Shown here one piece after another: positions 6,514 to 62,997 of a stretch of DNA of 64,000 bases. This DNA is from Bacillota bacterium (GTDB taxonomy: Bacteria; Bacillota; DTU030). The position numbers and the translations under genes were made by a program. Each line of letters starts with the position of its first letter. The first letter of the stretch is position 1. The stretch covers positions 9,777 to 73,776 of the forward strand of contig JAAYSG010000060.1 of assembly GCA_012518435.1 (NCBI GenBank). The letters run 5' to 3'. Below the pieces are notes generated by a model. That model had not been told where the DNA came from, did no database searches, and was given only the letters and a program-made list of their open reading frames with translations.

Positions 6514-8568
6514 CTAACCCTTCTTGCCAGCATCCTTATCCCGGCGGCGGAGCAAATTTACTTCCCTCGGATTCAAATTGTAAAGGGCATAAACCCTTTC
6601 CTCCACCTTTTCCAACAATATCCCCATTTCCCGGCGAAGAATAGCCACCACAGCTGCCGCTTCCCCCTTGTCTTCGGCCCCAACCATCCTTTGCCCCAGG
6701 TTAATTAGTTCTTGGGCCAGATTTATAAGGGGTTTTTGTTCATCGGGGGAAATTGCAGGCACAGGAAGATCCCGTAGGCCCGGCCCCCGGCTGGAACCCA
6801 TGGGCAGACGTGTAGCAGTTGCCCGGGATGCGGCAGATAGGATCCCGGCTTCCCGGGCATAAAAGGTCATAAGGCCGCTGTTTAAAAGGGGCAATAAATA
6901 AAATAGGGAATAATGGCTGAAGAGGGCATTGATAACATAGGCACTATTGTCACAATACTCCTCTGGGTCGTCACTATAGGCAGCGGCAATCCTCCTAGAA
7001 GCATCTAAGGATTGGCGAACAAAGATTTTTTCCCGTCGGAACCTAACATCGCTTTTGCCGATGGACACCCGGGCTTTTAACCCTTGGCCGGCAAGGTAAT
7101 TATTTATAGCCCGGGCAAGTTCACGATCATAGCAAATATATTTTCTCTTCCTTCCCCGGCCTGCAATTTGTTCCCCAGTGGGCCACCGAACTATATAGGG
7201 AGAAATATTGCTGCTGAAGATGGCCTTATGATAGCTGGAATCCAGGGGTTCAGCGGAGAGAAAGGGCTTTAAGCCAGCCCCGGGCCGGTTGGTAACATTC
7301 ATGCCGGAAATAGCCCTGTACAATTCCCCCAGGGGAGGACCCGCCGCCTTGATCTTGGCCAACAGGGAGGCAACCTCCTTTGGAACCGGCCGCAACCAGC
7401 CCGCCGGGGAAGAGTTTTGCGGAATCTCAATTGTTTCACCGGATAAGCCCCTTTGAAAGCGGATTCCATGCTTTGGGACCCCTCTTCCCTTCGGTGGTTT
7501 TTTTAGGATAAAAATTGCCTGTCGATTATTGACCCCGGGGAAGATCTCCAGATCAGAAACAATATGCTCAACTAAAGACTGGGACTGGATGTATTCCCGT
7601 ATTTCCTTGTAAACCGTTGTCTGAAAACCACTACCATCCACTACGACACCGGCCCTTCCCCCCACCTCCAACAATTCCAAAAAACGTTCTAAAAAAAACA
7701 TGGTCAGGTTATAGCGATTGCTCCTACGCCCCCGGCTAAACTGATATTGGGGTTTAAGGGTGTCAATATACTCCTGTTTTAGCCCTTGGGAACGCCGGGC
7801 ATAATTTGTCACATGGGGTGGATTACCCCCCACCACACTAAAGGGGCGGTCGAAGACGGTGGACAGGGGCCCATTTTTATCCAGGGCATCACCCCAGAAT
7901 AGGTTCTGAGTTGGCAGCCTTCCCGCCGCCTGCCAGACTTCCCTATCCTTTTCCAAAAGGACTAGGGCAGACAACTGTAAGGCCCAGGGATCTATATCCA
8001 CACCATAGAGATTATGCCGCAAAATTAGGGCGGGAACTTCCCCTTGGGGAACCCCCCGCCTGAGGTAAGCCGCCCGCAACCCATCATAGGCCCGGGAAAG
8101 AAAAAATCCACAACCACAGGACGGATCCAGGAAGGTAACTTGGCTAGGGTCCAATTTGCGAAGGAGAGGCAATAAGCTATGGGCCAAAATGAAATCCACC
8201 ACTTCGGGGGGAGTGTAATATACCCCCAAGCGCTGGCGCCGCCCAAGGGGTTGCAATTGAAGGTAAAGGGAGATGATTTCTTCCACAGGCACCACGGTTA
8301 GGGAAAAATCACGGAAGGTATCCCCCAGAAAGGGCTCCGCCTGGGCATTGAGCTCCTCCCAATCCCTCCAGAATAAATGGTTGTCATTGGAGGAGGAAAA
8401 AGCGCTGGGTATCGGCTCTGCCGGGGTTATATAACCCTTATCTTGCCATGCCTTTTTAACCAAGTAGCCTGTGAGAAAGGTATTTATTTGGGCCGGTGTA
8501 AATACCCTTCCCAAGGTCTTTCCCCCTACCTGCAAATTTTGTCCCAGGACCCTTTTTAGCTGATGCAT
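6514..8568 (-). CDS. Gamma-class N6-adenine DNA methyltransferase (Eco57I/TaqI-like). It appears to be an orphan and carries an atypical NPPH motif IV.
   Basis: GVYYTPPEVVDFI (motif X), FLDPSCGCGFFL (motif I, FxGxG), VVGGNPPHV (motif IV) and NRYNLTMFFLERFLELLEVGGRAGVVV are all present, followed by a C-terminal TRD of about 400 aa. The start was chosen at MHQLKRV to avoid overlap with the HAD gene. Confidence 0.8.
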   Translation of the reverse strand: MHQLKRVLGQNLQVGGKTLGRVFTPAQINTFLTGYLVKKAWQDKGYITPAEPIPSAFSSSNDNHLFWRDWEELNAQAEPFLGDTFRDFSLTVVPVEEIISLYLQLQPLGRRQRLGVYYTPPEVVDFILAHSLLPLLRKLDPSQVTFLDPSCGCGFFLSRAYDGLRAAYLRRGVPQGEVPALILRHNLYGVDIDPWALQLSALVLLEKDREVWQAAGRLPTQNLFWGDALDKNGPLSTVFDRPFSVVGGNPPHVTNYARRSQGLKQEYIDTLKPQYQFSRGRRSNRYNLTMFFLERFLELLEVGGRAGVVVDGSGFQTTVYKEIREYIQSQSLVEHIVSDLEIFPGVNNRQAIFILKKPPKGRGVPKHGIRFQRGLSGETIEIPQNSSPAGWLRPVPKEVASLLAKIKAAGPPLGELYRAISGMNVTNRPGAGLKPFLSAEPLDSSYHKAIFSSNISPYIVRWPTGEQIAGRGRKRKYICYDRELARAINNYLAGQGLKARVSIGKSDVRFRREKIFVRQSLDASRRIAAAYSDDPEEYCDNSAYVINALFSHYSLFYLLPLLNSGLMTFYAREAGILSAASRATATRLPMGSSRGPGLRDLPVPAISPDEQKPLINLAQELINLGQRMVGAEDKGEAAAVVAILRREMGILLEKVEERVYALYNLNPREVNLLRRRDKDAGKKG

Positions 8569-8593
8569 AATAACAAAACCCCCACAGGCAATA

Positions 8594-9313
8594 CTAAGCC
8601 CAAATGGACTCCAACAAGCCCGGAAGTTGGGAAAGGTGTTGCACCCGCCAGACCCCTTGGGGAGCATCCCCTTCCTGCCCAGAAGTAAACCAAATGGGTA
8701 CCATCCCGGCTGTTAGGGCCCCCTTCACATCCGTGCGGGGATCATCGCCAATATGGGCGGCCCTTTCCGCCACAGCCCCCAATTCCCCTAGGGTTCGGGT
8801 GAAAATATCCCGATTTGGCTTTGCAATTCCCAATTCATTGGAAAAGGTAAGGACCTGGAGATACTTGCTTAGCCCGGCAGCGGCCAGCCAGGGACGAATA
8901 ACCCGCCCCGGGGTACGGCCGGTGTTACATATAAGGGCCAGACGATATTTCTCTGCCAACACTGCCAGTACTTCTCCGGCCTGTTCCATAACAAGGATCT
9001 CTCCCCTGCCCCGGGCACTGGTGTAATACCCCATTAGTTCCCCCGTAAGTTCCCCAGTGGGCGTCAGCCCGGCCCGGCCCAGAATCCAATAAAGCTGCTC
9101 CTCCGGTAGTATATCCAGGCCCTCCTTCACCTGCCGGGCCATAACCATTTGGCGACATTCCTCAATTATCGCCGCTAACCTGTCCTCCCTAATACTAGGC
9201 CCGGCAGCAGCCAAAACCCGGCCCAGGTTTTTCGCTAGGCGGTCAGCCGCCTGATCATAATGTTTTTCATAGATTAGGGTATTCCAAAGGTCAAAGGTAA
9301 CTGCATAATCCAT
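8594..9313 (-). CDS. HAD-superfamily hydrolase (subfamily IA-like)
   Basis: The N-terminus MDYAVTFDLWNTLI (motif I-like) and the C-terminal GDDPRTDVKGA (motif IV) match the HAD pattern. Confidence 0.7.
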   Translation of the reverse strand: MDYAVTFDLWNTLIYEKHYDQAADRLAKNLGRVLAAAGPSIREDRLAAIIEECRQMVMARQVKEGLDILPEEQLYWILGRAGLTPTGELTGELMGYYTSARGRGEILVMEQAGEVLAVLAEKYRLALICNTGRTPGRVIRPWLAAAGLSKYLQVLTFSNELGIAKPNRDIFTRTLGELGAVAERAAHIGDDPRTDVKGALTAGMVPIWFTSGQEGDAPQGVWRVQHLSQLPGLLESIWA

Positions 9314-17384: not shown

Positions 17385-18878
17385 TCAATTCCCACTGTCT
17401 TTGCCGGGAATAAGGAAGGTGTACTTTTCCCCACCTTTTTCCCCGAAGCCCTCTACCGTGCAAAATAGACCCAAAATCCTATCCACCATCCCCTTAAACT
17501 GCCGGTACTGCCTTTCCGCAACAAAAATAAAACCGTGGGCTAAAATACTGTAATTCCTATTTCTAATTTGGTTGCCAAGGTCAATCCAATCAATACCCTT
17601 CCCTTTGCCGGTGGGCACTTGGCTTAAGCGGAAGGGATCATTGAGGGCTTCCAGAAGCATATAACCATCCATGAGGGCGATGGGAGCAGGCAGTCTTTTC
17701 ACCGGCTCCATTTGGGCATCCTGCCGCGCCCCGTTAAAGAGTGTCAAGAGGTCGGGGGTAAAGGGGGAATAATTAGGCTGGGCCGTATCAATGTCATGGC
17801 AGGCCAGGCGCCGCTGTTCCATAATTTCCAAAAGGCGATATAAAAACAGGGAAGCAGAATCCCATTGTCCCTGGTGGGCCCGCCGCTGAGCATTATGGTA
17901 TACGGTAAAAACTAGGGTTTCAACGGCATCCTTATCTTGCAACAAGTCCAAGGTTGATCTTTGCGGACCGGTGGGCATCAATTTTGCCAGATAGTCCACC
18001 CTATCTTGCTGTTCCTGAAGAAAAGCAACCTCTCTTGTAATTTCACCCAAATTTAGCTTCTTTTTTATTTCTATTGCCTGGCCCAGCTGGTGGGCAGCCA
18101 TTTTTAAATTTAAACCATCCCAGGCCCCATAGGCCAGGGCCAAGGCCTGTAAGTATTGGGCTCGGCGGGGATCGGGCACATTTTGCACCAACTCCGACAG
18201 GATTTGGCTGGCCCCGTAAAATTCTTGCCTTTCCAAGAGTTCCAAGGCATTTTTTTCCCTTAAGACGCCGAAGACCTCATAGGGGTTGGGGAGAATCTTT
18301 AAGTACTCAGTACCCGGTTCCGGACAGCGGCGATCCTGCAAAAAGTTGGTGTTGTCCACATAGAGGAGATCAAAACCTAGGAAGGCCCCCACCAGGGCCA
18401 GCCCGGCGGCCATTGATTTGGTACCCCCGGTGATATCCACGGCTATTTCGCTTTTCCTCCCCCACTGTTCCCAGACTTCCTTAACCGCCTGATAAATTGT
18501 CCGCAGATCCGCCTTTTCCACCAACCTTTTATCCCATTGGGAGGGTGAGAGCCCGACATAGTCGATTATTTCGTCCAAATGTTTTTCCGTATCCATTGTA
18601 TAGAGGAAAAGGGTTTTTTGCGGTCGACAGGCCGATAGGGTGAAAATAAGGGGTTCCGGTGATTTCCCCACCGTCATAATAAGGCCAAAGAGATTCTTCT
18701 GGCGCATTTTCTCCCTTTCCCGAGCCTCAAAAATGGAGCAGGCCAAGGGAAAAACCTTTTCCCGATAATAACGGGCGGCCCTTATTCCTTCCTCACCCTT
18801 TGTGGGCATGTCCCGCCACTTTTTCTTTACCAGGGCCAACTCCTGCTGCAAGTTATAATTTTCCCCCTCAGTGGTCAT
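17385..18878 (-). CDS. csx1: Csx1/Csm6-family CARF-HEPN ribonuclease, a cyclic-oligoadenylate-activated type III ancillary nuclease
   Basis: The N-terminal CARF Rossmann domain reads FGLIMTVGKSPEPLIFTL...ITGGTKSMAAGLAL. The C-terminal HEPN R-X6-H motif is NQIRNRNYSILAHG. It lies directly downstream of csm5. Confidence 0.8.
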   Translation of the reverse strand: MTTEGENYNLQQELALVKKKWRDMPTKGEEGIRAARYYREKVFPLACSIFEAREREKMRQKNLFGLIMTVGKSPEPLIFTLSACRPQKTLFLYTMDTEKHLDEIIDYVGLSPSQWDKRLVEKADLRTIYQAVKEVWEQWGRKSEIAVDITGGTKSMAAGLALVGAFLGFDLLYVDNTNFLQDRRCPEPGTEYLKILPNPYEVFGVLREKNALELLERQEFYGASQILSELVQNVPDPRRAQYLQALALAYGAWDGLNLKMAAHQLGQAIEIKKKLNLGEITREVAFLQEQQDRVDYLAKLMPTGPQRSTLDLLQDKDAVETLVFTVYHNAQRRAHQGQWDSASLFLYRLLEIMEQRRLACHDIDTAQPNYSPFTPDLLTLFNGARQDAQMEPVKRLPAPIALMDGYMLLEALNDPFRLSQVPTGKGKGIDWIDLGNQIRNRNYSILAHGFIFVAERQYRQFKGMVDRILGLFCTVEGFGEKGGEKYTFLIPGKDSGN

Positions 18879-19093
18879 TGCACATCTCTCCTTTTCATAA
18901 GGGCTTGTTAAAGATAATCCTGCTGGGCTGCCACACCCCCATGCAGTATCTTGTCGGCCTTCTAGATAAAGGGCAAAATATCTTACAGATCATCCCAAGG
19001 GCTCCTCACAGTCCAGCCTTCGAAATAAACTTATGAACTGCTGCTGGCTAATTATAAGATAATGGAACTCCTTCCTTAATGTATCGCCTTTCT

Positions 19094-20239
19094 TTAATCG
19101 GCGGGACTTATCTGCACCTTCACCCAACCCAAGGTGGTGCACGGTTCTATCCCTTCCTGCATAACAACCTTGCGAGAACGGGGAAAAACCCCAGGATGCC
19201 GTGCTTTATAGAATTTTTGCCCCAGGTTCAGGCGTTCTTGCCCCCTCAAGGCCTGGCTAATAGTCATTGTCAAAAGGCCGGTCCCCCAGCCCAGGCGAAG
19301 ATTAGCCCCTCTTCCTTCCAGGCCCAGCAGATCATCCACCACCCCCTTCAATCCGGCGTGCTGGAAAAAGACCCTTTCCTCCGTGAGCAGGGCTGCTGTT
19401 TTCTCCTTGAGGCGGGAAAAAAGTTCCAGTGGCGTAAAAATACCCCTTCCTCCGGGGAATGCCCGAAAAAGCCCTTGCAAAAAGGGCGGAAAGGTAATGG
19501 TGCCAGTAAAAATTGTCCCCGGGGCTATGGTTTCTAAAAATACTGAAACTTGCCTTTCCCCTCTTCTGTCCCGGCGATCAAGGGAAAAATGAAAACCTTT
19601 CTCTTTATTGAGGCTGACAACCTTCACTTCAACCACTTCGGTGCAGTCCGGGTCCTCTGTGTGAAAGTCGCTTATTTGCAGGGTACGAAACCAATCCCGG
19701 TGGGGACCCTGCCTCGCCCCCGGAATATGGGCTTGGCTAAAAACATCCTCTTCTAAAAACCGTGCCACAGTTTTAGGATTATTCCTATTGGCCACCGCCT
19801 TTGCTGCACCTTTCCGCAGGGCTTCATCTTCTGTACAGTAAAGGTAAAGAATGAGATTGCGCAGGGCACCCTTTACCGCCGAACCTGGGATAACCGGTCT
19901 ATTCCCCACCATATCCCATTGCTGGGGGCGGAGGCTGAAAAAATGGCCTTTGATCTTATGTTTAATCCTGCGGCTGCTAATGGCAGCCCGCAGTGATTCC
20001 GCCTTGCGCCGGGGGAGGGACTGGAAAAAGCGAAAGAGATTGGGCCGGTAATCCCCCCCCAGGTAGCTTAAAAAACCCGCCGTTAGTCCTTCATCGTTTA
20101 GGGCCCGGACAAGCCTGTCCTCATTTATTAAATAGACCCACTCCCTATCCCGGAGAAACTCCATTGTTCCCAGTTCCCGCCCTTCTCCACCTATATGGAA
20201 GGGAGAAAGAATTTCCATCTCCACCTTATATCTGGCCAT
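19094..20239 (-). CDS. csm5: Type III-A RAMP Csm5 (Cas7 group)
   Basis: The G-rich loop IPGSAVKGALRN is present, the size is 381 aa, and it follows csm4. Confidence 0.8.
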   Translation of the reverse strand: MARYKVEMEILSPFHIGGEGRELGTMEFLRDREWVYLINEDRLVRALNDEGLTAGFLSYLGGDYRPNLFRFFQSLPRRKAESLRAAISSRRIKHKIKGHFFSLRPQQWDMVGNRPVIPGSAVKGALRNLILYLYCTEDEALRKGAAKAVANRNNPKTVARFLEEDVFSQAHIPGARQGPHRDWFRTLQISDFHTEDPDCTEVVEVKVVSLNKEKGFHFSLDRRDRRGERQVSVFLETIAPGTIFTGTITFPPFLQGLFRAFPGGRGIFTPLELFSRLKEKTAALLTEERVFFQHAGLKGVVDDLLGLEGRGANLRLGWGTGLLTMTISQALRGQERLNLGQKFYKARHPGVFPRSRKVVMQEGIEPCTTLGWVKVQISPAD

Positions 20240-20248
20240 ACTTACACC

Positions 20249-21181
20249 TCACTTCACCCTTACTAAAAAGGAACGCCCATACCTATACACCGGGTGGTAG
20301 CGGCGGGCAAATTCCGCAGGGGCCACATCCACTATGCTACCCTCTATGGGACGGGAAAATATACTCCCCTCAGCAAACATATTCAGCCGCAGGTGTTTGT
20401 GGTTTCCTAGAGCCCTGGGAGAATAAATCCAGCCACCCCGTTTTAAGAGGCGGTAGAAAAGAAGGGAGCCTCGGGTTTCCGAGGGGTCTGCTGGGTAAAC
20501 AAGGGACAAGGTCAAGTAGTTTTTCCCTCCCTCCAGCCCCGGACAGGAAAAATCCTCCACAAAAGTGGGAGTAAAGCGGCCATATCCCGAAGAGCGCTCC
20601 CCCCCTATTCCCTCTTCACCCAAGAGTTTAAGAACAGGCCCTAGTTGCCGCCAAAGGTCATCGCTCTCCGTCTTTAGTAAAAAGTAAAGGCCACAATCCC
20701 AATCCCGACAAAAGTGCACTTCAGCCACCTGATAAAGGGAGGAATCCTGACTAAGCCGATCCAGGGCCACCCGGGGGCGAAGTTCCCTAGTAATTGCCTC
20801 AGCCAACCTGGACTGGGATTTTTCCAGCTCTGTTAGGGAAAAATCAGCCCCTTGAATCCAAGGGGAAAAGAGGGATTCCGGCACATAGCGGGCCCTTTTG
20901 ACCCCCTTGCCATAGATACTGCGCAGGTCGGGATCTGATAAGGAGGCCAGCGCCAGGTAGGGTTTGGGATAATAGTATTCATCCCTTATGTAGGGGAAGG
21001 CAGAGGATAGACGCAGGGGCAGGTGTCCCTCGGGGGGGCCATAGACCCGGCACCAAAGACTATAAATAGCCCCGTAAAGGGTATCGGAATGGATCATGGT
21101 GCTGACCTCTTCCATACCCAAACCCCTTTCCCCCACATGGAGGGGGGAAGTAAAGCATAACTTTATGGCTCTAACGCCCAC
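20249..21181 (-). CDS. csm4: Type III-A Csm4 (Cas5 group RAMP)
   Basis: The N-terminus FTSPLHVGERG...HSDTLYGAIY is characteristic of Csm4. The size is 310 aa. Confidence 0.85.
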   Translation of the reverse strand: MGVRAIKLCFTSPLHVGERGLGMEEVSTMIHSDTLYGAIYSLWCRVYGPPEGHLPLRLSSAFPYIRDEYYYPKPYLALASLSDPDLRSIYGKGVKRARYVPESLFSPWIQGADFSLTELEKSQSRLAEAITRELRPRVALDRLSQDSSLYQVAEVHFCRDWDCGLYFLLKTESDDLWRQLGPVLKLLGEEGIGGERSSGYGRFTPTFVEDFSCPGLEGGKNYLTLSLVYPADPSETRGSLLFYRLLKRGGWIYSPRALGNHKHLRLNMFAEGSIFSRPIEGSIVDVAPAEFARRYHPVYRYGRSFLVRVK

Positions 21182-21187
21182 AGCAGC

Positions 21188-22033
21188 TCACCTGCCCTCT
21201 CCACAGAGCTGGACCAAAACCTCGGCAAAAAATTGCCCCAAGCCCTGGTCTTGCCCCTGCACATAAGTTTCTTCCTTTTCTGCACCCCGGCCAGGTAAAT
21301 AATAAGACAGGGGCCGGTAATGCACCCGCAACCTTTGCAATTCCACCCGGCCCGAACCCCGGGAGCCACTACCGCCAAGAAAATCATCGTTGAGAAGTTG
21401 AAGGAGGGAAAATATCTCCTCCAGGTCTGAAGATATTAAAGGAGCACTTAAGGGCTCATCAAGGTTATAAAAAAAACAGAAGTTAAACCTACTGCCCCGG
21501 GGTACCCTTTCCAACTGCCGGGGGGTGGCAGCAGATGTCAAACGATCCAAGGTGTTTTCAAACTTTAATTCCGTCAGATATAAACCCGTATCGATCTTTT
21601 CCAAAAGTTCCTTACTTTCCCCCTTAAGGGCCGCATCCTCCACATAAAGGCGGGCCGGGCGACTTTGGGGAATATTCCCATCTGAACTGGCGCCAAAGAG
21701 GCGGCAAACATGGCATTCTGGCACATTACATTCGTGGTGACGCACCTTATCCACCCGTTTATTAAAAAATTCGCCAATGCTTTTCTCGCTAAATTCTTGC
21801 CCGGCAAAGGCCTTTTTTTCGGCCAAACTGCGCAGTTTTCCCTTAATACTGCTCCCGGGAATATAAGGTTCCCTGGTTAGGGGATCCCGTACTACAGGAC
21901 TATCTACCCCACCTATTTCCATTACTTCTTGGGAAGCCCCAATATGTAAACCCGTCTGGCAATATAGCTCCCCGGCTATTTTTATCTTGCCCAAGAGCTT
22001 GCCCGTTGTCAGCATAGGAGCCATTTTCCACAC
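21188..22033 (-). CDS. csm3: Type III-A Csm3 (Cas7 backbone subunit)
   Basis: LGKIKIAGELYCQTGLHIG and YIPGSSIKGKLRSL are the classic Csm3 G-rich loop. The true start is probably MLTTGK, a few codons in. Confidence 0.9.
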   Translation of the reverse strand: MWKMAPMLTTGKLLGKIKIAGELYCQTGLHIGASQEVMEIGGVDSPVVRDPLTREPYIPGSSIKGKLRSLAEKKAFAGQEFSEKSIGEFFNKRVDKVRHHECNVPECHVCRLFGASSDGNIPQSRPARLYVEDAALKGESKELLEKIDTGLYLTELKFENTLDRLTSAATPRQLERVPRGSRFNFCFFYNLDEPLSAPLISSDLEEIFSLLQLLNDDFLGGSGSRGSGRVELQRLRVHYRPLSYYLPGRGAEKEETYVQGQDQGLGQFFAEVLVQLCGEGR

Positions 22034-22036
22034 CTC

Positions 22037-22444
22037 CTAATTTCCACCGTAAAAGCGGTGATAGGCAACCACACCTTCCACAAAACGGAGGAATTTTTCA
22101 AAGTCTTCTTGTCCTTCTTCCCCCGGGCGGATCTTGTCGATGGCCAAGCCCAGTACCTCGGACAAGGGTTGCACCTGTCGGCGCTGCCTGGCCGCCGCAT
22201 AGGCCAGGTGCACCTTCAAGAGCACCGCTGCCTGTTCTGCGCTTATATCTTTGTCCCGGCGTTTAATTTGCAAGTCCACTTTGCGCACCCCGTCTAAAAA
22301 CTTCCGAATTTGCGAGGTCTTCAGTCCCGCATCCTTGACAGTTTTGGCTAAATTATCAGCCCACTGCACCAGATCTTTATTGTCCACAGCAGCCAAATAG
22401 TCCATCTTCTGCAGTTCCTTTTTAATATCTCTAACCGTCCTCAA
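22037..22444 (-). CDS. csm2: Type III-A small subunit Csm2 (Cas11)
   Basis: It is a 135-aa all-helical basic protein between cas10 and csm3. Confidence 0.75.
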   Translation of the reverse strand: MRTVRDIKKELQKMDYLAAVDNKDLVQWADNLAKTVKDAGLKTSQIRKFLDGVRKVDLQIKRRDKDISAEQAAVLLKVHLAYAAARQRRQVQPLSEVLGLAIDKIRPGEEGQEDFEKFLRFVEGVVAYHRFYGGN

Positions 22445-24867
22445 CCTTCCCCACCTCCCCTGGTAATTAAATCAATGACCCTTAGCACCGCTGGTAGATA
22501 ATAGCTTAAATTTTCCCCGTTCATGGCCGCCCCCAGCAAGGGCCGGTAGAAACTGTCCCGATAAGATCTGTTTCTTTCCTCGGAACGGGTGAAGAGGTAA
22601 TGGAGCCGGGGTATTAGCCAGGCCCTCTCCCCGTTTTCCCCACGGGCATAGGCGGCGGCCAAATGGGCCAAATTGTGGAGAAAACTTTTACTATAGGCCA
22701 AGGGCCTTATCCTTCCCTTTTCACCATAGTGTGCCCCCCGCAGGAATAAGGTGTAAAAATCCTTGAGGGTACTACACCCTCCGGTGGTAACCTCCCTCCC
22801 TCCCACCTTATCCCACTTGAAGGCCCAATGGGAAAAGGCAAAGCTATCCCGCCCATTATCCTTTGCCTTCTGCTCCCCTTGGCCGGCCATTTCCGCCAGC
22901 CGATAAAGGGGGATTTTCTCATCCGCCACCGTCAACCCACCCGATAGGGTTAAGGAGGGATTATGGCCGGTGTAGCGGCGAAAATCCCCATGGATCTGAT
23001 AGGCAGCCTCCAAAGCATCATTCCAGGCTCCCAGCAAAAATAGATCATCCCCTCCGGCATAGACCAAATTCAACCACATTTTACGGCCTTGATGGACCAA
23101 GAGGAGGGGATCCTTTATTTCCTCAGCCAAGAAGGCAGGCAAATAGTATTTAAAGTAAAGGTTAAGCCTCTCTGAAAGGTCATTTAGGCGGGCAAAGGAG
23201 AACTTATCCTCCAGCAGGCCACGACTAAAAACCGACCCTAATCGATCCACATCCAGGCGCAACACTCCTAATTTTTCCGCCCCTATACTATTTTCAACTA
23301 GGCCGTCAAATTCTTTACAAGTAAAATAACTGCCGGAGGGAAAATTTCCCGCAGCCACCGACACGGGTTTTGATAAGACCCAGGGGGTATCCAGGAGATA
23401 ATATCCAGCCATGGGCCCGGAATAGTTGCCCCGAGTGAAAAGAAAAGGTACCCCCATCAGATCCAAGAGCAAGCCATCACCCTTGTTGGTGGCTTGTCCC
23501 GATTTGGGAAGGCGGTAAAATTCCTTTACCTCCGGCAACAGCTGGCCTAAACTAAACATCTGGGCACAGAAGGGGCAGACCAACAGATCATCCTCACCGG
23601 GATAGGGAATTAGTTCTTTACCCCTTTCCTGGCAAATAGGGCAAGATTCCTCTGCTGTTTCCGGGGCAAAAATACTGGCGTAATCCTCCTCAATCTCCCG
23701 CAACCACTTTCTTTCCTTGGCAATACTGAGTTTTTGTCCCACCATATGCCAAGTTTTACCCAAGCCACCGGCCAAACCCACCGCCGCTAGCGGTTCCATC
23801 GCCAGGGAAAGGTAAAGGGTTGTACCAAAACACTGGTATAACCAGCTATTAACCTGCCGCTGGACAGCAGTTATCTTTTCCCGCGCCCTTAGAGTATTTG
23901 GGACCAGGAGGTATAAACCCCCACCACTGGCATAGATGATGCAGGCCCGGGGCAGATCCAGCTCCGTCACTAGACGGGTTACAAGGGCTTCCAGGAGTAA
24001 TTCCAAATAAAAAGAACGCCCCCGCACCGTCTTCAGAGCCCCTTTGGAAGATAAGGTATAAATAAAATCTTGTATCCCAGAGAGATCACCCCCCAGAAGG
24101 AGGTAACGCTCCTCCTCTTCATCCTCAATTTTCTCCCTCAGGTCTTCCCCGGCCCAGGAGGCACCATCCTCCTGCAAATACTTATAGGTGCACCAGGCCA
24201 AGGCAGCCGTAGTTTTTAAGTGGTGATAGAGGGAAATGTCGGGCGCTCCCCCCAGTGCGCATGAATTCCCAGGAACATAAAGGGTGTACTTTTGCAACAA
24301 AAGAAGCAGAGTATCCTCTGCCACACCCCTGGGGTCCTGGGCCAACTCTCCCCGTAACCCTTGCCACAGCCCCTTATATAAGTTAGTAAAATCCACAGTC
24401 CCCTTTCCCCCCACCCGGGGATAATTGTAGTCCACCGCCGGCCGCGGTTCCCAGACTAAATCTTCTTTCACCGGCTCCCTATGGGGCAAGGCAACCCCTT
24501 TAAAAACCGGGGACAGCAGACGGTCCGGTTCCAAATCATCCTCTCCCCCAACTCCCAATCCCTCCATCCCGGTGGCAATATTATTTGCCTGGGCCACCAG
24601 GTAAAGACTATTTTGCAAATTATAATTTTTTCCCGGCAGGGCCTCCGGCGCTAATTCCCCATATTGGGCATCATCTTCTTTTAGCAGATGGTGCCGCCTA
24701 ATAATTTCCACCACATTTTGCGACAGACCAGCCCCTTGGGCCCAGAGGGCACCTAGTTCCTGGTGCCGCAGTTTGCGCCTGTCATCATCCTTTGCTAAGG
24801 AGCGGAAAATCAGCTTTCCAATATCATGCAGCAGTGCACCGGTAACAATATCCTTGCGCAGAGCCAT
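22441..24867 (-). CDS. cas10: Cas10/Csm1 large subunit, with both the HD nuclease domain and the GGDD cyclase palm present
   Basis: There is an N-terminal HD motif (ALLHDIGK), zinc-finger cysteines (CPICQ...CPFC) and YAGGDDLFLLGAW (GGDD). The size is 808 aa. Confidence 0.92.
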   Translation of the reverse strand: MALRKDIVTGALLHDIGKLIFRSLAKDDDRRKLRHQELGALWAQGAGLSQNVVEIIRRHHLLKEDDAQYGELAPEALPGKNYNLQNSLYLVAQANNIATGMEGLGVGGEDDLEPDRLLSPVFKGVALPHREPVKEDLVWEPRPAVDYNYPRVGGKGTVDFTNLYKGLWQGLRGELAQDPRGVAEDTLLLLLQKYTLYVPGNSCALGGAPDISLYHHLKTTAALAWCTYKYLQEDGASWAGEDLREKIEDEEEERYLLLGGDLSGIQDFIYTLSSKGALKTVRGRSFYLELLLEALVTRLVTELDLPRACIIYASGGGLYLLVPNTLRAREKITAVQRQVNSWLYQCFGTTLYLSLAMEPLAAVGLAGGLGKTWHMVGQKLSIAKERKWLREIEEDYASIFAPETAEESCPICQERGKELIPYPGEDDLLVCPFCAQMFSLGQLLPEVKEFYRLPKSGQATNKGDGLLLDLMGVPFLFTRGNYSGPMAGYYLLDTPWVLSKPVSVAAGNFPSGSYFTCKEFDGLVENSIGAEKLGVLRLDVDRLGSVFSRGLLEDKFSFARLNDLSERLNLYFKYYLPAFLAEEIKDPLLLVHQGRKMWLNLVYAGGDDLFLLGAWNDALEAAYQIHGDFRRYTGHNPSLTLSGGLTVADEKIPLYRLAEMAGQGEQKAKDNGRDSFAFSHWAFKWDKVGGREVTTGGCSTLKDFYTLFLRGAHYGEKGRIRPLAYSKSFLHNLAHLAAAYARGENGERAWLIPRLHYLFTRSEERNRSYRDSFYRPLLGAAMNGENLSYYLPAVLRVIDLITRGGGEG

Positions 24868-24973
24868 TCCCCCCCTTCATGGTCTAGATAGGCTGTAATA
24901 AATAATGGTTGCAATTCCCGGAGGGAATTAGGATATTCCTTATAACCTTCTCTTTTCCCATTCCAACTTACAA

Positions 24974-25239
24974 GGTTACCAAGTTTCAATTCCCACCAGG
25001 GAATTAGGAGTGTTTTAACTAAAATAAAACAGTTCAGCCGGGATTACATTTCCACAGTTTCAATTCCCACCGGGGAATTAGGCATTGTTTGGGCGTGATG
25101 TTAGGAGTATGTGCTGTCGTCTAAGAATATTTCAATTCCCACCGGGGAATTAGAAAGTGTTTTGATTTCCTTGGAGACGGTATCAAGTGGCGGCCTGGGC
25201 ATTCTTCAATTCTCAAAGGGAATAGAGAGAGCTTACTAA
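24974..25239 (-). CRISPR. Degenerate CRISPR array A: 4 repeat copies of a variant repeat, TTTCAATTCCCACCGGGGAATTAG..., with spacers of 48, 36 and 38 bp
   Basis: Repeats lie at 24974-25009, 25058-25093, 25130-25165 and 25204-25239 (the last is strongly decayed). The AATTCCC/GGGAATT stem is the same as in array B, but the loop (ACCG) and the 3' half differ. Confidence 0.55.
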
Positions 25240-25452
25240 TAACGGGAGGATGACAATAATACAATTTGACATTTTAGGTGCAAATTCCTTCCAAAACGCC
25301 GCAAATAGTAAATAACCCCTTTGCATAACCCCAAACCCCTGAAATATAAGATTTTAGACCATGCAAGGGGCCCGATGAGGAAAATAATGGGTTTTGTCCA
25401 TCGCCACTCATTGGGACAAATTGGGCTGTGGGTAAGGCAAAACCCCCTCGTC

Positions 25453-26415
25453 ACATAATTCCCCAGGGGAATTAGAGGGTGTTTTGACATAGGCACAATG
25501 GGACTTGCTCCCATATTCGATAGTTTCAATTCCCCAGGGGAATTAAAGGGTGTTTTGACCTTTTCCAGCGCATGGAAAGCGCCGGCGCCGTGATTTTCAA
25601 TTCCCTGGGGGAATTAAAGGGTGTTTTGACGCCATATCTTTTATAATTTTGGAAATGATCGTGGTTTTCAATTCCCTGGGGGAATTAAAGGGTGTTTTGA
25701 CGGGCCTTTTGGTGTACCAACTGTGCTAGTACGGTCTTTCAATTCCCTGGGGGAATTAAAGGGTGTTTTGACCGGCGGCAATTGCTGCACACAGCAAGCC
25801 CAGCATCTTTCAATTCCCTGGGGGAATTAAAGGGTGTTTTGACGGAAGCATGAAGGAACTATCGGAAGTGATGGAACTTTCAATTCCCTGGGGGAATTAA
25901 AGGGTGTTTTGACCTTGGAGGATCTGCAAGCGTATATCCGTGGCGATCTTTCAATTCCCTGGGGGAATTAAAGGGTGTTTTGACCGGGGTTCACCGTAAG
26001 TTATTGGGTAAACTTTATCTTTCAATTCCCTGGGGGAATTAAAGGGTGTTTTGACACCCGCCCCCGGTATGTTTAATTTCCGGGGTAATCTTTCAATTCC
26101 CTGGGGGAATTAAAGGGTGTTTTGACCGCGGATCGCGGCGGTGGATTAGGTTGGAATGGAGATTTCAATTCCCTGGGGGAATTAAAGGGTGTTTTGACAC
26201 GGCTTTGTGGTGGCAGACTATGTGGTAGCCGTGATATTTCAATTCCCTGGGGGAATTAAAGGGTGTTTTGACTTATCACTATCGGAATTGGCCATGCGGA
26301 GGCAGAATTTCAATTCCCTGGGGGAATTAAAGGGTGTTTTGACTTGGCCGCCGTCCTGTATCTTTCTTCCGCCTTCTGATTTCAATTCCCTGGGGGAATT
26401 AAAGGGTGTTTTGAC
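25453..26415 (-). CRISPR. CRISPR array B: 14 repeats of 36 bp and 13 spacers of 34-38 bp. The repeat on the plus strand is TTTCAATTCCCTGGGGGAATTAAAGGGTGTTTTGAC, inferred to be transcribed as GTCAAAACACCCTTTAATTCCCCCAGGGAATTGAAA.
   Basis: Repeat starts are 25453 (degenerate, truncated), 25524 (CCCCAGGGG variant), 25595, 25666, 25737, 25808, 25878, 25949, 26020, 26091, 26163, 26237, 26308 and 26380. Degeneracy is at the low-coordinate end. Confidence 0.95.
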
Positions 26416-26790
26416 AGTGAGCTCTGTAACCCTTACTGTATAAGGCCCGAAATGCTGCTTTGCGCGAAACTACAAATTGGCTTGTAATATACTTTGACCT
26501 TCATGTCGGAAACTCCTCCTAAGCGTGTCAAACAAGGATCGCGAAGCTAGCGGGTTTTTATGTCCCGTTGACCTATGCGAATGCGGGCAGAGAGAGCCCC
26601 GCCCCTGATATGGAAGGGCCATGTCAAGACCCCATCCCGGGGAGTATTAGGGCTATTTTGCAAGTATACGCACAGGATCCAAAGTGTTGATTGGCGCGAG
26701 CCAAGGGATTAGCCCTAGTATGCTAATTACTTTGACTCATATCCCAGGAAATCCTTCAAGGTAGAAATAATAAAACCCACAATTATAAAT
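26416..26790 (-). promoter_or_regulatory. Putative CRISPR leader (AT-rich, non-coding) flanking the conserved end of array B
   Basis: It is a roughly 370-bp non-coding AT-rich segment next to the best-conserved repeats. This orientation matches the cas operon direction and a GTC...ATTGAAA repeat polarity. Confidence 0.45.
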
Positions 26791-26835
26791 GGCAGTAAGA
26801 AGGATAGTGGGCGGTGGTAGATGGGGCAACAAGAA

Positions 26836-26883
26836 AATAAAGCATGCCGTATTTAAAGAAGCAGGTACTTTTGTACCTGCTTC
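26836..26883 (-). terminator. Strong rho-independent terminator between the serine hydrolase gene and the CRISPR leader
   Basis: GAAGCAGGTAC-TTTT-GTACCTGCTTC is a perfect 11-bp stem, followed on the minus strand by TTTAAATAC..TTTATTTTCTT. Confidence 0.65.
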
Positions 26884-27059
26884 TCACCCACCATATAACA
26901 AAGGTTCCCTTCATTTTTCAATTTTAAAAAGTACTAGTAAATGGTGCGTAAATGTGCTTTGCCTTCCCAACCCATCCGGGGAAAATGACATGGGGAACAA
27001 CTTTGAGGAAGCAATCTTTACCCAATAAATAACCTAAATACAGCCATTAAAATCCCCCC

Positions 27060-28034
27060 TTAGAAACGATCAAAGGGCCAATATTCTTCTATAAGGCCAC
27101 TGAGAATTTTTTCAATGGGTTCTACATCATGCTGGTAAGCCTGGGTAATTATTATGCCCCTGTCTGCAGGTAAAATAGTCAGGGTTTGGCCATCGGTTCC
27201 GTGACCAAAGTAAAAATCTTCCTTGGCTAACCAAATGCCATACCCATAGCCATAACGGCGAAATAGCCTTTCAGGGGTATCCACATCTTTAGTGCGAAAA
27301 CGTAAGGTTAGCATTTTGTCCAGCCAGTCTTTAGGGATGATGGTTTGGCCCCTAAATACCCCTCCATTTAAGAGGAGTTCTCCTATCTGCAACAAACCCT
27401 CCGGGAATAACCATAGACGGGTCGCCCCGGCCAAGTACTTACCATACCTCTCCCACCTAAAATCCTCTAGGCCCAGGGGATTAAAAAGTTCCCGGGTGAT
27501 GAATTCCAATAAATCTTCCTGCAAAAACTCCTGCAGAGTCACCGCCAATAAATAAAAACCAGCATTGGAATACAAATAGTGTTCCCCGGGCTCATAGACT
27601 AGGGGGTAATTTACCAATAAATCCACATAAGTATGGGGATCAATATCTTTAATATCATCACGCATTAACAGCACCTTGTCATAGCCAATGGAGTGGGTTA
27701 AAAGGTGCCTGACCTGGATCTTTTGCAGGTATTCCAGGTTTTTTTCATTGGTCAAGTTGACAACATCTTTTATGAGGGGATAAACATATGTGTCATCGCT
27801 AAAGGGTGTATATTTGCCTTCCCGGGCCAAGCGATACACAATCCCTGCCGTCAGTGTCATGACGGTTTTACTAATACTACGTATATCACTCATGTCTCTT
27901 TTTGCCTTGAAGCAATGGACAAAACAATTATCCTTATCCTTTAGGAGAAAATAGTGCATATTTATTTGCCTGCCCTTACTATCCTTGGCCTGTTCAAACG
28001 TTTTTACTAGCTGGTCAAATTTTTCCTGGTTCAT
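27060..28034 (-). CDS. Beta-lactamase-fold serine hydrolase (class C / esterase-like family)
   Basis: SxxK (SISKTV), YxN (YLYSNAGF) and an H-G-T third motif (FGHGTDG) are present. The gene is markedly lower in GC than the flanking cas genes. Confidence 0.7.
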   Translation of the reverse strand: MNQEKFDQLVKTFEQAKDSKGRQINMHYFLLKDKDNCFVHCFKAKRDMSDIRSISKTVMTLTAGIVYRLAREGKYTPFSDDTYVYPLIKDVVNLTNEKNLEYLQKIQVRHLLTHSIGYDKVLLMRDDIKDIDPHTYVDLLVNYPLVYEPGEHYLYSNAGFYLLAVTLQEFLQEDLLEFITRELFNPLGLEDFRWERYGKYLAGATRLWLFPEGLLQIGELLLNGGVFRGQTIIPKDWLDKMLTLRFRTKDVDTPERLFRRYGYGYGIWLAKEDFYFGHGTDGQTLTILPADRGIIITQAYQHDVEPIEKILSGLIEEYWPFDRF

Positions 28035-28105
28035 TATCTCACCTCTCACCATCTCACCCCCACTAATCTTTAAAAATAGTGCAACAATAATGCCCTATAA
28101 TGAAT

Positions 28106-28139
28106 GGTTTCAAGTTAGTCCAAAGGCTAACTTGAAACC
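28106..28139 (-). terminator. Hairpin terminator after the FGGY kinase gene
   Basis: GGTTTCAAGTTAG-TCCAAAGG-CTAACTTGAAACC is a 13-bp perfect stem with a moderately U-rich minus-strand tail (ATTCATTAT). Confidence 0.5.
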
Positions 28140-28162
28140 ACACTTCATAAGCCATCTTTTAT

Positions 28163-29728
28163 TTAATCGACATGCTTCATGGCCACCTGGGCCAACTCAT
28201 TATAGATGTTGGCATCCTTAAGGGCTAAGAAGGTCTTTTTAAACATTTGATAAAAATCGGTGTAAATTTCATGTTTTTTCATATCGGGTTGGATAATCTC
28301 CTCAGTATGCACCATATCTTCAATGGCTTCATCAATACTGTTTAAGGCCCCTGCCCCAACTCCACCTAAAATAGCTGCCCCCAAGGCTGCACATTCCGAT
28401 ACCTGTAGTCTCTCCACCGGTCTGCCATAGATATCTGCCTGCATCTGGGTCCAAAACTCTGAACGGGCCCCGCCCCCGGAGAGACGAATAATATCAAAGG
28501 GGCGCCCCAGAGCCCCTTCCATGGCCTCAACTGCCATGCGCAACTCATATATAATACCCTCCAGTACTGATCTGGCCACATGATGCCGATCATGGATTTG
28601 TGTTACACCCAGCATGCCACCCCGGGCATTATCATGATAGTGGGGAGTTGCTTGGCCGTTAAAGGAGGGGAAGAACAAAAGACCACGGCATCCTATGGGG
28701 GCCTGGGAGGCTTCCAGGGTTATGATATCATAGGGGCTTAAATTTAAGACTGCCCCCATCTCCTTTTCGGGCTGGCCAAAGGTATCCCGCCACCATCTGA
28801 GGGCCTCTCCCGCAGCATGGGCTGTACCTTCCATATCCCATTTGTGGGGAATGGCATGGCTGCCAAAGGATACCCCGCTTCCGGCAATTTGGTCCACATT
28901 TTTGATGTCATCTATTTGGGCCACCATGACAGCAGCAGTACCCAGGGATAGCTCGGCGATCCCCTCCCTGTTTACCCCCGAACCCACTGCCGCACACTGT
29001 TGATCCCCACCACCGGGAGATAAGATAGTACCAGGAGCAAAGCCGGTGGCCTCAGCTGCCTCTAAAGAAACTTCGCCCACTGATCTCAGATCATGGAGGA
29101 TAGGGGGCAATTTTCCCCTATCTATGCCTATGGCATCTAATAATTCGGCTGACCAATCTAATGTTTCGATATTAAACATTCCATTATAGTTTAATGCCGA
29201 TGGAACGGCAAAGGTTTCTTCCGATCCTAAACGGTGTAAAACCCACTCCTGGCCATTGACAAACTTCCAGGTTTTTTCGTAAATATCAGGATGATTATCA
29301 AGCAACCACTTTAACTTCGGGTAGACCCACATGCTTGAAGGATGCAAGCCACTGGTGTTATAGTATTTATCACTACCGATCTTATCTTTTATCCATTGGG
29401 TTTCCTTGGTGGCCCGCCCATCTGACCAGACAATGGCATCAATTAGCGGTTCCCAGTTTTTATCTATGGGGACAAAGGAACCCCTCTGGCTGGAGACACC
29501 AATGGATACAATATCCCGGCTAGCACCCTTAAATTTACTAATTGCTTCTTTGGAGGCTTTACACACCCCAGCCCAAAGTTCCTGCATATCCTGATCAACC
29601 CAACCGGGGTGGGGGTGTTTAGTAGTATATTCGCTATAACCACTGCTGACAATATTACCCCGACCATCAAAGATTATAACGGCTGTACCCGTTGTACCCG
29701 CATCAATCCCGGCAAAATATTTTGCCAT
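28163..29728 (-). CDS. FGGY-family carbohydrate kinase (xylulokinase / LsrK-like)
   Basis: The N-terminus MAKYFAGIDAGTTGTAVIIFD is the FGGY phosphate-1 motif. The size is 521 aa, and the C-terminal FGGY motifs (RLSGGGARSEFWTQMQADIYG) are present. Confidence 0.85.
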   Translation of the reverse strand: MAKYFAGIDAGTTGTAVIIFDGRGNIVSSGYSEYTTKHPHPGWVDQDMQELWAGVCKASKEAISKFKGASRDIVSIGVSSQRGSFVPIDKNWEPLIDAIVWSDGRATKETQWIKDKIGSDKYYNTSGLHPSSMWVYPKLKWLLDNHPDIYEKTWKFVNGQEWVLHRLGSEETFAVPSALNYNGMFNIETLDWSAELLDAIGIDRGKLPPILHDLRSVGEVSLEAAEATGFAPGTILSPGGGDQQCAAVGSGVNREGIAELSLGTAAVMVAQIDDIKNVDQIAGSGVSFGSHAIPHKWDMEGTAHAAGEALRWWRDTFGQPEKEMGAVLNLSPYDIITLEASQAPIGCRGLLFFPSFNGQATPHYHDNARGGMLGVTQIHDRHHVARSVLEGIIYELRMAVEAMEGALGRPFDIIRLSGGGARSEFWTQMQADIYGRPVERLQVSECAALGAAILGGVGAGALNSIDEAIEDMVHTEEIIQPDMKKHEIYTDFYQMFKKTFLALKDANIYNELAQVAMKHVD

Positions 29729-30087
29729 AAATTAGCTCATCCTTTCTATTTTATTTGCTATTAAAAAGCCCTCGTTAGCACTAGCCTGCTCTAACAGGGA
29801 ACTCTATAGCCATTTATCCCTATATTTCCTTTTTTTATCTAATATACTCCGCCCCAGAAACAAATATTGTCTTCGCATTATTCCATATTTTCATTCACCA
29901 TTATTAATATCCTTCGCTAACTAGGAAACAATTCCTCCTTCTTTTTGAAAATAACTAGTTATTGGCCGGTACCTATCTAGTGATCCTGAGATCCGATATG
30001 AGGATGGCGGCAGGAAGTCCCTTTCCCCTACCGAAGTAATTCTCTATATACTAATTCCCTTCGAAAATAGGAAAGGTGTGCTCTACT

Positions 30088-30855
30088 ATGCTACAAAGGT
30101 TTAGATTTACCCTAAAATGTCTGCAGGCGGGCAGGGTGAGGGGGATGGGGGGAGGGGAGGTACATGGCCTGCTCTTTTCCCTTCTGGGGGAGGCCGGAAA
30201 AGAAAGAGCGGAAGGGCTACATAAAACCAGCAAAAAGCCTTTCTCCCTATCGCCCTTACAGGGGATAGGGAAAAGGCACAATGGTTTTTTTTACCTTCAG
30301 CCGGGGGAAATATATAGTTTTACAGTTGCCAGCCTTACGGAAGAAATGCACCACCAGTTAGAAGAGGTGGTGGCTCGCTGGAGCCCAAGGGAGATAGAAT
30401 TAGGGACGGCCCTTTTGGCCACCCAAGATGTTGGGCCGGAAATACCCGGTGGTATAACCTACCAGGAGCTTGTGGCCAAGGCCCAGGCTAGACATAATAC
30501 AAGTTTGGAATTTGTCACCCCCACCAGCTTCCGCCAAAGGGGAACTCAAATCCTCTTCCCCCAGCCAGAATATGTCTTCGGCAGCTTACGCCAGCGCTGG
30601 AATGATCACGGCCCCATTCAACTCCCTCTGGATTTAGATCTAACCCAAGTCCGGGTCACAAGGCACCGGATACACACCCAGGTCTTACATTTTAAGAACT
30701 ATAAAATCATCGGCTTTACCGGTAGATGTAGCTATCAAGTATCCGAAAAAACCCCCGACTTCCTCCCCTGGCTCCTTTCCGTCTTGGCCAATTTCGGGGA
30801 AATTGCCGGGGTGGGCTATAAAACCACCATGGGGATGGGGGTTATGAGGCGTTAG
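30088..30855 (+). CDS. cas6: Cas6 crRNA endoribonuclease (RAMP), separated from the effector operon
   Basis: The C-terminal glycine-rich loop is GEIAGVGYKTTMGMGV (GxGxxxxxGxG). The size of about 255 aa is typical. It is the only cas gene on the plus strand, 3.6 kb from the array. Confidence 0.8.
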   Translation: MLQRFRFTLKCLQAGRVRGMGGGEVHGLLFSLLGEAGKERAEGLHKTSKKPFSLSPLQGIGKRHNGFFYLQPGEIYSFTVASLTEEMHHQLEEVVARWSPREIELGTALLATQDVGPEIPGGITYQELVAKAQARHNTSLEFVTPTSFRQRGTQILFPQPEYVFGSLRQRWNDHGPIQLPLDLDLTQVRVTRHRIHTQVLHFKNYKIIGFTGRCSYQVSEKTPDFLPWLLSVLANFGEIAGVGYKTTMGMGVMRR

Positions 30856-62950: not shown

Positions 62951-62997
62951 TTAAATGATAGTAAATTCTGAAATCCTTGCGAAAAGGGGTGGTTTTT

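Follow-up and report, generated by a model that had tools for sequence, protein, structure and literature searches.

Organization of the csm operon and its Csm6 effector

A 64,000-nt stretch of contig JAAYSG010000060.1 (positions 9,777 to 73,776, forward strand; assembly GCA_012518435.1) from a Bacillota bacterium of the DTU030 lineage, referred to here as the window, contained a CRISPR locus with type III-A (Csm) cas genes. The locus consisted of the effector operon cas10-csm2-csm3-csm4-csm5 followed by csm6, two arrays upstream of cas10, and one cas6 gene on the opposite strand. Judging from its genes and their motifs, it is apparently an intact, ordinary type III-A CRISPR defense locus.

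The initial annotation had placed cas10-csm2-csm3-csm4-csm5 on the minus strand and proposed a search with Cas10, Csm2-5, Csx1, and Cas6 profiles. This search matched the Csm subunits and Cas6, and each subunit scored above the curated cut-offs of NCBIfam and Pfam; the cut-offs of the NCBIfam type III-A equivalogs served as the yardstick for the Csm subunits, with Pfam run in parallel. Cas10/Csm1 (22441-24867, 808 aa; PF22335, PF18211, PF01966) reached 543 bits against TIGR02578 (cut-off 170), and its HD motif (LLHDIGK), zinc finger (CPIC...CPFC), and GGDD cyclase motif (YAGGDDLF) were all readable in the translation. The csm2 gene (22037-22444, 135 aa), whose start overlaps the cas10 stop, encodes the Cas11 small subunit and was identified as Csm2, as opposed to Cmr5, by TIGR01870 (75.5 bits, cut-off 30.6) and PF03750 (E 1.1e-28). 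The Cas7-type, target-RNA-cleaving backbone subunit is encoded by csm3 (21188-22033; TIGR02582, 220 bits, cut-off 90) and carries the catalytic-Asp motif GGVDSPVVRD; the true start of this gene is likely the ATG at 22024, which gives 278 aa and matches the orthologous locus L002. The remaining subunits were a Cas5-like RAMP encoded by csm4 (20249-21181, 310 aa; PF17953 Csm4_C; TIGR01903, 262 bits, cut-off 55) and a Cas7-like RAMP encoded by csm5 (19094-20239, 381 aa; PF03787 RAMPs; TIGR01899, 59.9 bits, cut-off 38.3). The order of the RAMP genes, csm3-csm4-csm5, is that expected for type III-A. All seven cas open reading frames (ORFs) of the locus were of full length, with the HD, GGDD, Csm3 Asp, HEPN R-X-H, and Cas6 glycine-rich loop motifs intact. 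Two metagenome contigs, one from food and one of 72.6 kb in ENA (NODE_300), also encode exact copies of Cas10 and Cas6; the organism is recorded in ENA ERZ2648292 (the source of NODE_300) and in SRR3747714. Both contigs are 99.8-99.9% identical to the window, represent the same species, contain all ORFs intact, and break at the arrays. Among GTDB species genomes, NusA was most similar to that of the biogas MAG "Clostridia bacterium DTU030" (81%), followed by another MAG (73%) and by Heliobacterium and Thermincola (~70%), which identifies the source as an uncultured lineage of Bacillota that lives in fermenters.

The gene that follows csm5 on the minus strand (17385-18878, 497 aa) encodes an effector of the CARF-6H-HEPN architecture (Csx1/Csm6 family, TIGR02710 type). 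Its product matched the Csm6 HEPN family PF09670 (E 1.2e-20), Csm6_6H (PF22205), and, weakly, a CARF family in Pfam, and scored 172 bits against TIGR02710 (cut-off 83.9). The CARF motif DITGGTKSM and the HEPN motif RNRNYSILAHG were readable in the translation. The best solved relative was Csm6 of Thermus thermophilus (5FSH; E 3.5e-27), which aligned nearly end to end (residues 33-454) and included the motifs DxTxGTK and RN..S.L.HG. The initial annotation had called this gene csx1. Its claim of a CARF-HEPN effector downstream of the operon was supported by PF09670 and TIGR02710, whereas the architecture and the alignment to 5FSH favor the name Csm6; moreover, no Pfam Csx1 family matched, whereas the Csm6 HEPN and 6H families did. 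This is a difference in nomenclature rather than an error, because PADLOC models of the same family are labeled either "Csx1" (2e-73) or "Csx1/Csm6" (7.5e-63), behind the best PADLOC match, CARF1--CARF_HEPN (2e-130), and usage of the two names overlaps here. By homology to the Thermus protein (TtCsm6), the activator of the window Csm6 is probably cyclic tetra-adenylate (cA4). A non-coding gap of 215 nt (18879-19093) separates csm5 from csm6; it is 68 nt long in L002, and the two genes abut in L003. In L003 (8148-13172), csm6 is followed by genes for DUF2397, DUF2398, and an SMC/SbcC-like ATPase, which look like another defense or condensin-like system.

CRISPR arrays and leaders

The main array (25452-26415, minus strand) contained 14 repeats of 37 nt (GTCAAAACACCCTTTAATTCCCCCAGGGAATTGAAAN), running from R01 at the leader end (26415) down to R14 (25452) with a period of 70-74 nt, and 13 unique spacers of 33-37 nt. 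At three or fewer mismatches the repeat was found 13 times, compared with none in 100 shuffles, and 12 of the 14 repeats were identical over 36 nt. Read on the minus strand, it folds into a hairpin of 7-10 bp (-10.2 kcal/mol, z -3.1), and its 3' end, ATTGAAAN, has the usual form of what would be the 8-nt tag generated by Cas6. Rfam CRISPR-DR63 also matched the array on the minus strand. The terminal, cas10-proximal repeat R14 was degenerate (…GGGAATTATGTG / …ATTATGTG). From leader to trailer, base 37 of the repeat was T in four repeats, G in six, A in two, and C in one (permutation p ~1e-4). Such blocks are expected as a record of successive acquisitions at the leader end and fit copying from a slowly mutating leader-proximal repeat. 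The blocks and the degenerate R14 therefore place the leader from 26416 onward, with transcription towards cas10 and polarized growth of the array. The repeat-proximal ~150 nt of this leader (26416-27059, minus strand) aligned in MAFFT with the array leaders of relatives, including one that adjoins cas2; NODE_300 breaks inside the leader, at window position 26436. Regular near-identical repeats, unique spacers, a leader, and a degenerate terminal repeat are thus all present, as required of a CRISPR array. The exact repeat was not found in other arrays of the GTDB species genomes, and a metagenome scan returned only a sister-lineage variant. Matches of the spacers to the window itself were at chance level only.

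The two arrays that the initial annotation had placed upstream of cas10 were both present (14 and 5 repeats), but the second is a decayed mini-array and not an equal partner of the first. It occupies 24908-25239 on the minus strand, contains five degenerate repeats (R15-R19) with four spacers, and ends 40-41 nt before the cas10 ATG. R15 no longer folds, whereas R16-R19 keep the hairpin (-8.6 to -9.9 kcal/mol) and a ATTGAAAN-like tag. In these four repeats the hairpin and tag are 93% conserved, compared with 67% for the 5' parts, a pattern that points to continued selection on crRNA (CRISPR RNA) processing. The segment between the arrays (25240-25451, minus strand) serves as the leader of the mini-array and contains a promoter-like box at 25284-25256 (TTTGCA-17-TATTAT, within CTGGGAGGAnTTTTCAC..ATGTCAAATTGTATTA), which is conserved in L002 (~1540-1580) and L012. 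The box lies ~20-45 nt before the first mini-array repeat in the window and ~40-70 nt before it in L002, and suggests a single transcript for the mini-array and the cas10 operon. A promoter scan also recovered this box, but scans for promoters and terminators gave as many sites as shuffled sequences did, and only this box, conserved across lineages, was used.

L002 has an orthologous mini-array of four repeats, in which 42 nt separate the final repeat from cas10 and the spacers show no relation to those of the window. The element thus keeps its position relative to cas10 in two lineages; in a third (L003-type) its decay is far more advanced. These comparisons indicate that the mini-array was inherited from a common ancestor with the relatives. 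In a survey of CRISPR loci, 10-14% of type III systems had mini-arrays nearby, which were judged degraded and non-functional on the ground that closely related genomes did not share their positions (PMC10120712). A regulatory mini-array of the CreR/cr-like kind, in which a spacer would pair over at least 10 nt at the seed with a cas promoter or a toxin gene, was not supported, as none of the spacers S15-S18 matched a cas promoter or any other site above chance, and the spacers are not conserved in L002. Their matches within the window spanned 13-16 nt with a single mismatch apiece and were at chance level (lowest E 0.09); no promoter was among the matched sites.

Cas6 and the region upstream of it

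The only Cas6 of the window is encoded on the plus strand (30088-30855, 255 aa), as the initial annotation had stated. It lies 3.66 kb beyond the first repeat, with genes for a serine hydrolase of the beta-lactamase family (27060-28052, minus strand) and an FGGY carbohydrate kinase (28163-29728, minus strand) in between, both identified by Pfam and NCBIfam. The longest ORF of cas6 begins at a GTG at 30076, but the true start is likely the ATG at 30088, at which a 100% identical 255-aa gene call in an ENA metagenome (P0121) also begins. The protein matched PF10040 (E 6.9e-21) and TIGR01877 (76 bits, cut-off 58.65), and its best solved relatives were Cas6A/B of T. thermophilus (E 4e-12). The glycine-rich loop (GVGYKTTMGMG) is present and the cognate hairpin repeat folds (-10.2 kcal/mol), as expected of a Cas6 endoribonuclease with predicted cleavage of the repeat. 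The hydrolase and the kinase were rejected as CRISPR accessory genes, as they had no PADLOC match and are missing from the interval between cas6 and the array in a sister lineage. The G+C content was 0.44-0.47 over 25-31 kb, which covers the arrays, leader, hydrolase, and kinase, compared with ~0.50-0.52 in the flanks.

Two vestigial repeat-like units, 74 nt apart, were tentatively recognized upstream of cas6 (29977-30079, plus strand). The proximal unit (30051-30079; CTAATTCCC-TTC-GAAAAT-AGGAAAGG) overlaps the cas6 Shine-Dalgarno sequence, and its 3' arm is broken in the window. The corresponding hairpin, CTAATTCCC-N3-GGGAAT, is intact beside the cas6 Shine-Dalgarno sequence in L031/L027 (L031 9890-9990) and in L117 (215-318). 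The distal unit is weaker and was recognizable only through alignment with L031, and a full second mini-array upstream of cas6 was not accepted for this reason; the unit is kept as tentative. L031 also contained a paralogous unit of ~110 nt upstream of cas8 (7990-8100), which shares an identical stretch of 12 nt (GGCCTTCCCTGC). For type I-B loci, mini-arrays located ahead of cas6 have been described (PMC10120712; 10.1101/2023.03.10.532045). The units upstream of cas6 resemble these type I-B mini-arrays and, if real, may be a further trace of a type I-B origin.

The repeat-like hairpins at the 5' ends of cas10 and cas6 could also be read as functional elements. The last mini-array repeat (R19) and the hairpin at the cas6 Shine-Dalgarno sequence would then be Cas6-responsive cis elements that couple cas expression to Cas6 and to the crRNA load, and not fossils. 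Such elements would account for the distance of the last mini-array repeat from the cas10 ATG, which is 41 nt in the window and 42 nt in L002 even though the Cas10 proteins are only 74% identical and the spacers unrelated. They would also account for a hairpin and tag that persist while the 5' parts drift, and for a cas6-upstream hairpin at the same place in three lineages. On the other hand, no mini-array spacer matches the window above chance, the mini-array is far more decayed in the L003-type relatives, the cas6 hairpin is broken in the window itself, the survey cited above deemed type III mini-arrays degraded and non-functional (PMC10120712), and the sample consists of two or three lineages. 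Cis elements of this kind are therefore considered improbable, and the more specific proposal, in which the hairpins are Cas6-binding or cleavage sites through which the level of free Cas6 governs expression of cas6 and the III-A operon, is given a slightly lower probability still. If true, such control would amount to feedback between protein and RNA by a route other than the Cascade-guided CreR mechanism, and would contradict the view of mini-arrays near type III loci as mere debris. The conserved hairpins at the 5' ends of cas10 and cas6 are in any case a small lead on post-transcriptional control of cas genes.

Absence of adaptation genes

The claim that cas1 and cas2 are absent from the whole 64 kb was confirmed by Pfam scans and a six-frame tblastn, both of which were negative. 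No Pfam match to Cas1, Cas2, or Cas4 was obtained among 51 non-overlapping ORFs tiling the window (other ORFs of at least 110 aa overlap these on other frames and were left out of the Pfam scan), or among 46 small intergenic ORFs. A six-frame tblastn of the window with 17 proteins of relatives (Cas4/Cas1, Cas2, Cas3, Cas5, Cas7, Cas8, and Cmr) recovered none of them, and its best E-value, 0.04, was at the level of chance. No cas1 or cas2 gene lies immediately adjacent to the locus within the window, and the ORFs that run off the window ends encode TruB and a ParM-like ATPase. With no adaptation genes in 64 kb, spacer acquisition therefore comes from elsewhere in the genome or has been lost, and both options that the initial annotation had named are retained. 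Nevertheless, because the array shows polarized growth and its leader is homologous to leaders that are served by Cas4/Cas1-Cas2, the spacers were acquired by machinery of this kind.

Orthologous loci in related genomes

The closest of the compared loci, L002 (Cas10 74% identical), is syntenic with the window through csm6, a DUF2148 gene, and a PALP gene. It also contains a CARF gene (312-1364; PF09651 Cas_APE2256, TIGR02619, with weak similarity to ring nucleases) upstream of its mini-array, a gene for which tblastn found no counterpart in the window. A more distant, DTU030-like lineage (L003; Cas10 ~64%) has the same degenerate terminal repeat (…GGGAATTATGT) and heavily decayed repeats between this terminal repeat and cas10. 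The shared terminal repeat and the decayed remnants indicate that both the main array and the mini-array are older than the divergence of these lineages.

The DTU030-like lineage has a composite I-B/III-B/III-A locus (L027, L028, and L031-33; NCBI GCA_050951745.1). Its order is cas6 (plus strand), an ELFV dehydrogenase gene, cas8-cas7(I-B Cst2/DevR)-cas5-cas3-cas4/cas1-cas2, an array, cmr1-6 with csx1, a second array, and cas10-csm2…csm6. The Cas6 of the window is 60-61% identical to the Cas6 beside the type I-B operon in L027/L031, and the arrays of this relative share the repeat core TAATTCCC-N3-GGGAATTGAAA; its I-B, III-B, and III-A modules, as far as they were sampled, contained no second cas6. 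Both observations support the pairing of this Cas6 with this repeat family. The ELFV dehydrogenase encoded next after cas6 in L031 shares 82% identity with the product of a window gene at 40894-41958, ~10 kb downstream of the window cas6, and the two cas6 genes are therefore at orthologous chromosomal places. In Desulfotomaculum copahuensis, the gene for a Cas6 of 44% identity stands first in a cas6-cas8-cas7 operon. The window cas6 is thus a member of a clade that heads type I-B operons (L027, L031-33, and D. copahuensis). The initial annotation had described the cas6 gene as displaced. Its remote position is real, but it is not a relocated type III-A gene: as the relatives indicate, it is a type I-B-type cas6 at its ancestral place.

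The situation is different in the closest named relatives of type III-A, Neomoorella thermoacetica (L115) and L116, whose Cas10 proteins are 42-43% identical to that of the window. Both have a different Cas6 (AF_1859_N + Cas6), the gene of which overlaps the cas10 start, and an unrelated repeat of 30 nt (with a …ACGGAAAC tag in Neomoorella). No similarity was detected between the window Cas6 and the Neomoorella-type Cas6 (E 2.7). This Csm clade normally brings its own cas6; in the family of the window, arrays of the type I-B repeat family have taken the place of that gene, and processing would now fall to the type I-B Cas6. The N. thermoacetica locus (L115) contains a 4-repeat array (8722-8949) just upstream of cas6-cas10 and a 55-repeat array (17419-21000) downstream of csm6. 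Within this Cas10 clade, a small array in front of the type III-A operon is a recurring feature.

Predicted function of the locus

Taken together, the locus is probably a type III-A interference module with Csm6 that draws on arrays of a type I-B repeat family and on a type I-B-type Cas6 whose gene lies 3.7 kb away. The arrays would be transcribed on the minus strand towards cas10, starting in the leader (26416 onward) and at a second promoter-like box (~25270); this direction is indicated by the orientation of the repeats, the degenerate trailer repeat, and the homologous leader. Cas6 would bind the AATTCCC/GGGAATT hairpin and cut at its 3' base, leaving the 8-nt tag AUUGAAAN, and the resulting crRNAs would be loaded and trimmed by Cas10-Csm2-Csm3-Csm4-Csm5. 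Upon binding of a complementary transcript, Csm3 is expected to cut the RNA, the HD domain of Cas10 to cut DNA, and the GGDD palm of Cas10 to make cyclic oligoadenylate, probably cA4, which would activate the HEPN RNase of Csm6. For the targeting and Csm6 steps, all catalytic motifs are present, and the activities are inferred from well-studied Csm systems.

Some of the same observations could instead describe an orphaned, decaying relic, in which adaptation is gone, the cas6 is a leftover of a I-B system, and the module and its arrays no longer confer immunity and are heading to pseudogenization. A relic would explain the diverged repeats of the mini-array with the unfolded R15, the lack of any spacer with a detectable target, the absence of cas1/cas2 within 64 kb, and the decay of the repeat-like hairpin upstream of cas6 relative to its counterparts in relatives. 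However, the seven cas ORFs are of full length with intact catalytic motifs, 12 of the 14 main repeats do not differ over 36 nt, and in R16-R19 the hairpin and tag are kept at 93% compared with 67% for the 5' parts. Furthermore, type III systems without adaptation genes of their own are commonly functional, as in T. thermophilus HB8 (PMC5256923). Hence a relic is given only a slight probability.

Evolution of the locus

The locus is interpreted as a reduced form of the composite arrangement in the sister lineage (cas6 / I-B + adaptation / array / (III-B / array) / III-A), minus the I-B, adaptation, and III-B modules. The low-G+C hydrolase and kinase genes sit where the sister lineage has the type I-B and adaptation operon. 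Loss by replacement in the window lineage is favored, with modest confidence, over gain in the sister lineage. This preference is based on three considerations: the Cas6 clade is linked to I-B also in a more distant genome (D. copahuensis), the intervening genes look like newcomers, and the array must have had a source of Cas1-Cas2.

The reverse direction supposes an ancestor with only cas6, arrays, and III-A, into which the sister lineage inserted I-B with cas4/cas1-cas2 (and III-B), so that the window lost nothing. It would fit the lack of I-B or adaptation remnants between the leader and cas6 and the known mobility of Cas modules, and in the relative the cas6 lies on the other strand from cas8, with the unrelated ELFV dehydrogenase gene between them. 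This scenario does not readily explain why the same Cas6 clade heads a canonical cas6-cas8-cas7 I-B operon in the more distant D. copahuensis, or why L031 carries, upstream of cas8, a paralogue of the repeat-like units that precede cas6. Mini-arrays ahead of cas6 are a known feature of type I-B loci (PMC10120712). Both intervening genes are also lower in G+C than their surroundings, as would be the case for newcomers, and an array with 12 identical repeats needs a Cas1-Cas2 source. An insertion in the sister lineage is thus regarded as unlikely, though still credible.

Several points weigh against the proposed function and history of the locus. In L002, the CARF gene sits where the window has its main array. 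Machinery of the Cas4/Cas1-Cas2 type is now either encoded elsewhere in the genome or lost. Cleavage by Cas6, the 8-nt tag, and signaling by cyclic oligoadenylate are predictions from homology. A blastn of the concatenated spacers against 50,697 phage records gave only chance matches (E 0.8) and against plasmids none, and exact 24-mers of the four newest spacers had no match in IMG/VR; with no spacer target in the tested collections, activity against real invaders is likewise only inferred. As to the history, the direction of change rests on parsimony and on one well-sampled sister lineage, and a tblastn of the window with proteins of relatives found no type I-B pseudogene remnants.

As a defense system the locus offers nothing new, since there is ample documentation of type III-A modules without cas1, cas2, and cas6 that use arrays and Cas6 jointly with a co-resident type I system. 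Its value is that of a clean natural example of modular reduction, in which one chromosomal site holds I-B, III-B, and III-A in one lineage and cas6, arrays, and III-A in another. It also offers a lesson for annotation: a "displaced" cas6 can be the last survivor of a neighboring system and is not necessarily a relocated type III gene.

Other genes in the window

Outside the CRISPR locus, the minus strand encoded a 717-aa N6-adenine methyltransferase (6514-8667) with Eco57I-like and TaqI_C specificity domains and with PADLOC matches to MTase_II, type IIG, and PglX-like models; a partner nuclease was not recognized in its vicinity. The actin-like (ParM/ALP-type) ATPase ORF that runs off the right end of the window (62965-64000, plus strand) had no match in the PADLOC defense library.

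Comparison with known systems

The type III-A systems of Staphylococcus epidermidis RP62a and Streptococcus thermophilus have the same effector set as the window, with an HD/GGDD Cas10, the catalytic Asp of Csm3, and a CARF-HEPN Csm6, and their array likewise lies upstream of, and co-directional with, the cas genes. In these systems, cas1, cas2, and cas6 are located inside the operon, and Csm6 responds to cyclic hexa-adenylate (cA6). The window Csm6 is of the TtCsm6 type and would respond to cA4.

The DTU030-like locus shares with the window its chromosomal place, repeat core, degenerate terminal repeat, homologous leader, and type of csm6. It alone has cas8-cas7-cas5-cas3-cas4/cas1-cas2 before the first array and cmr1-6 with csx1 between the arrays, whereas the mini-array is better preserved in the window. 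N. thermoacetica (Cas10 42% identical) resembles the window in the order cas10-csm2-csm3-csm4-csm5-csm6 (TIGR02710/PF09670) and in having a 4-repeat array upstream of the operon. Unlike the window, which lacks such a gene, it has its own cas6 of 333 aa (AF_1859_N + Cas6), and its repeat is different.

The closest functional parallel is T. thermophilus HB8, whose csm1-csm6 genes, like those of the window, form an operon without cas1, cas2, and cas6. In this organism, crRNAs with one 8-nt tag derive from seven arrays that are shared with type III-B and type I-E systems, and Cas6 acts in trans (PMC5256923). Csm6 (TTHB152) and Cas6A/Cas6B of T. thermophilus are also the best solved relatives of the window Csm6 and Cas6, although the sequences are distant (E 3.5e-27 and 4e-12, respectively). 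In contrast to Thermus, the arrays of the window lie directly upstream of cas10 and in the same direction, and the 64 kb lack the partner type I system. This partner is of type I-E in Thermus, whereas it is type I-B-like in the relatives of the window.

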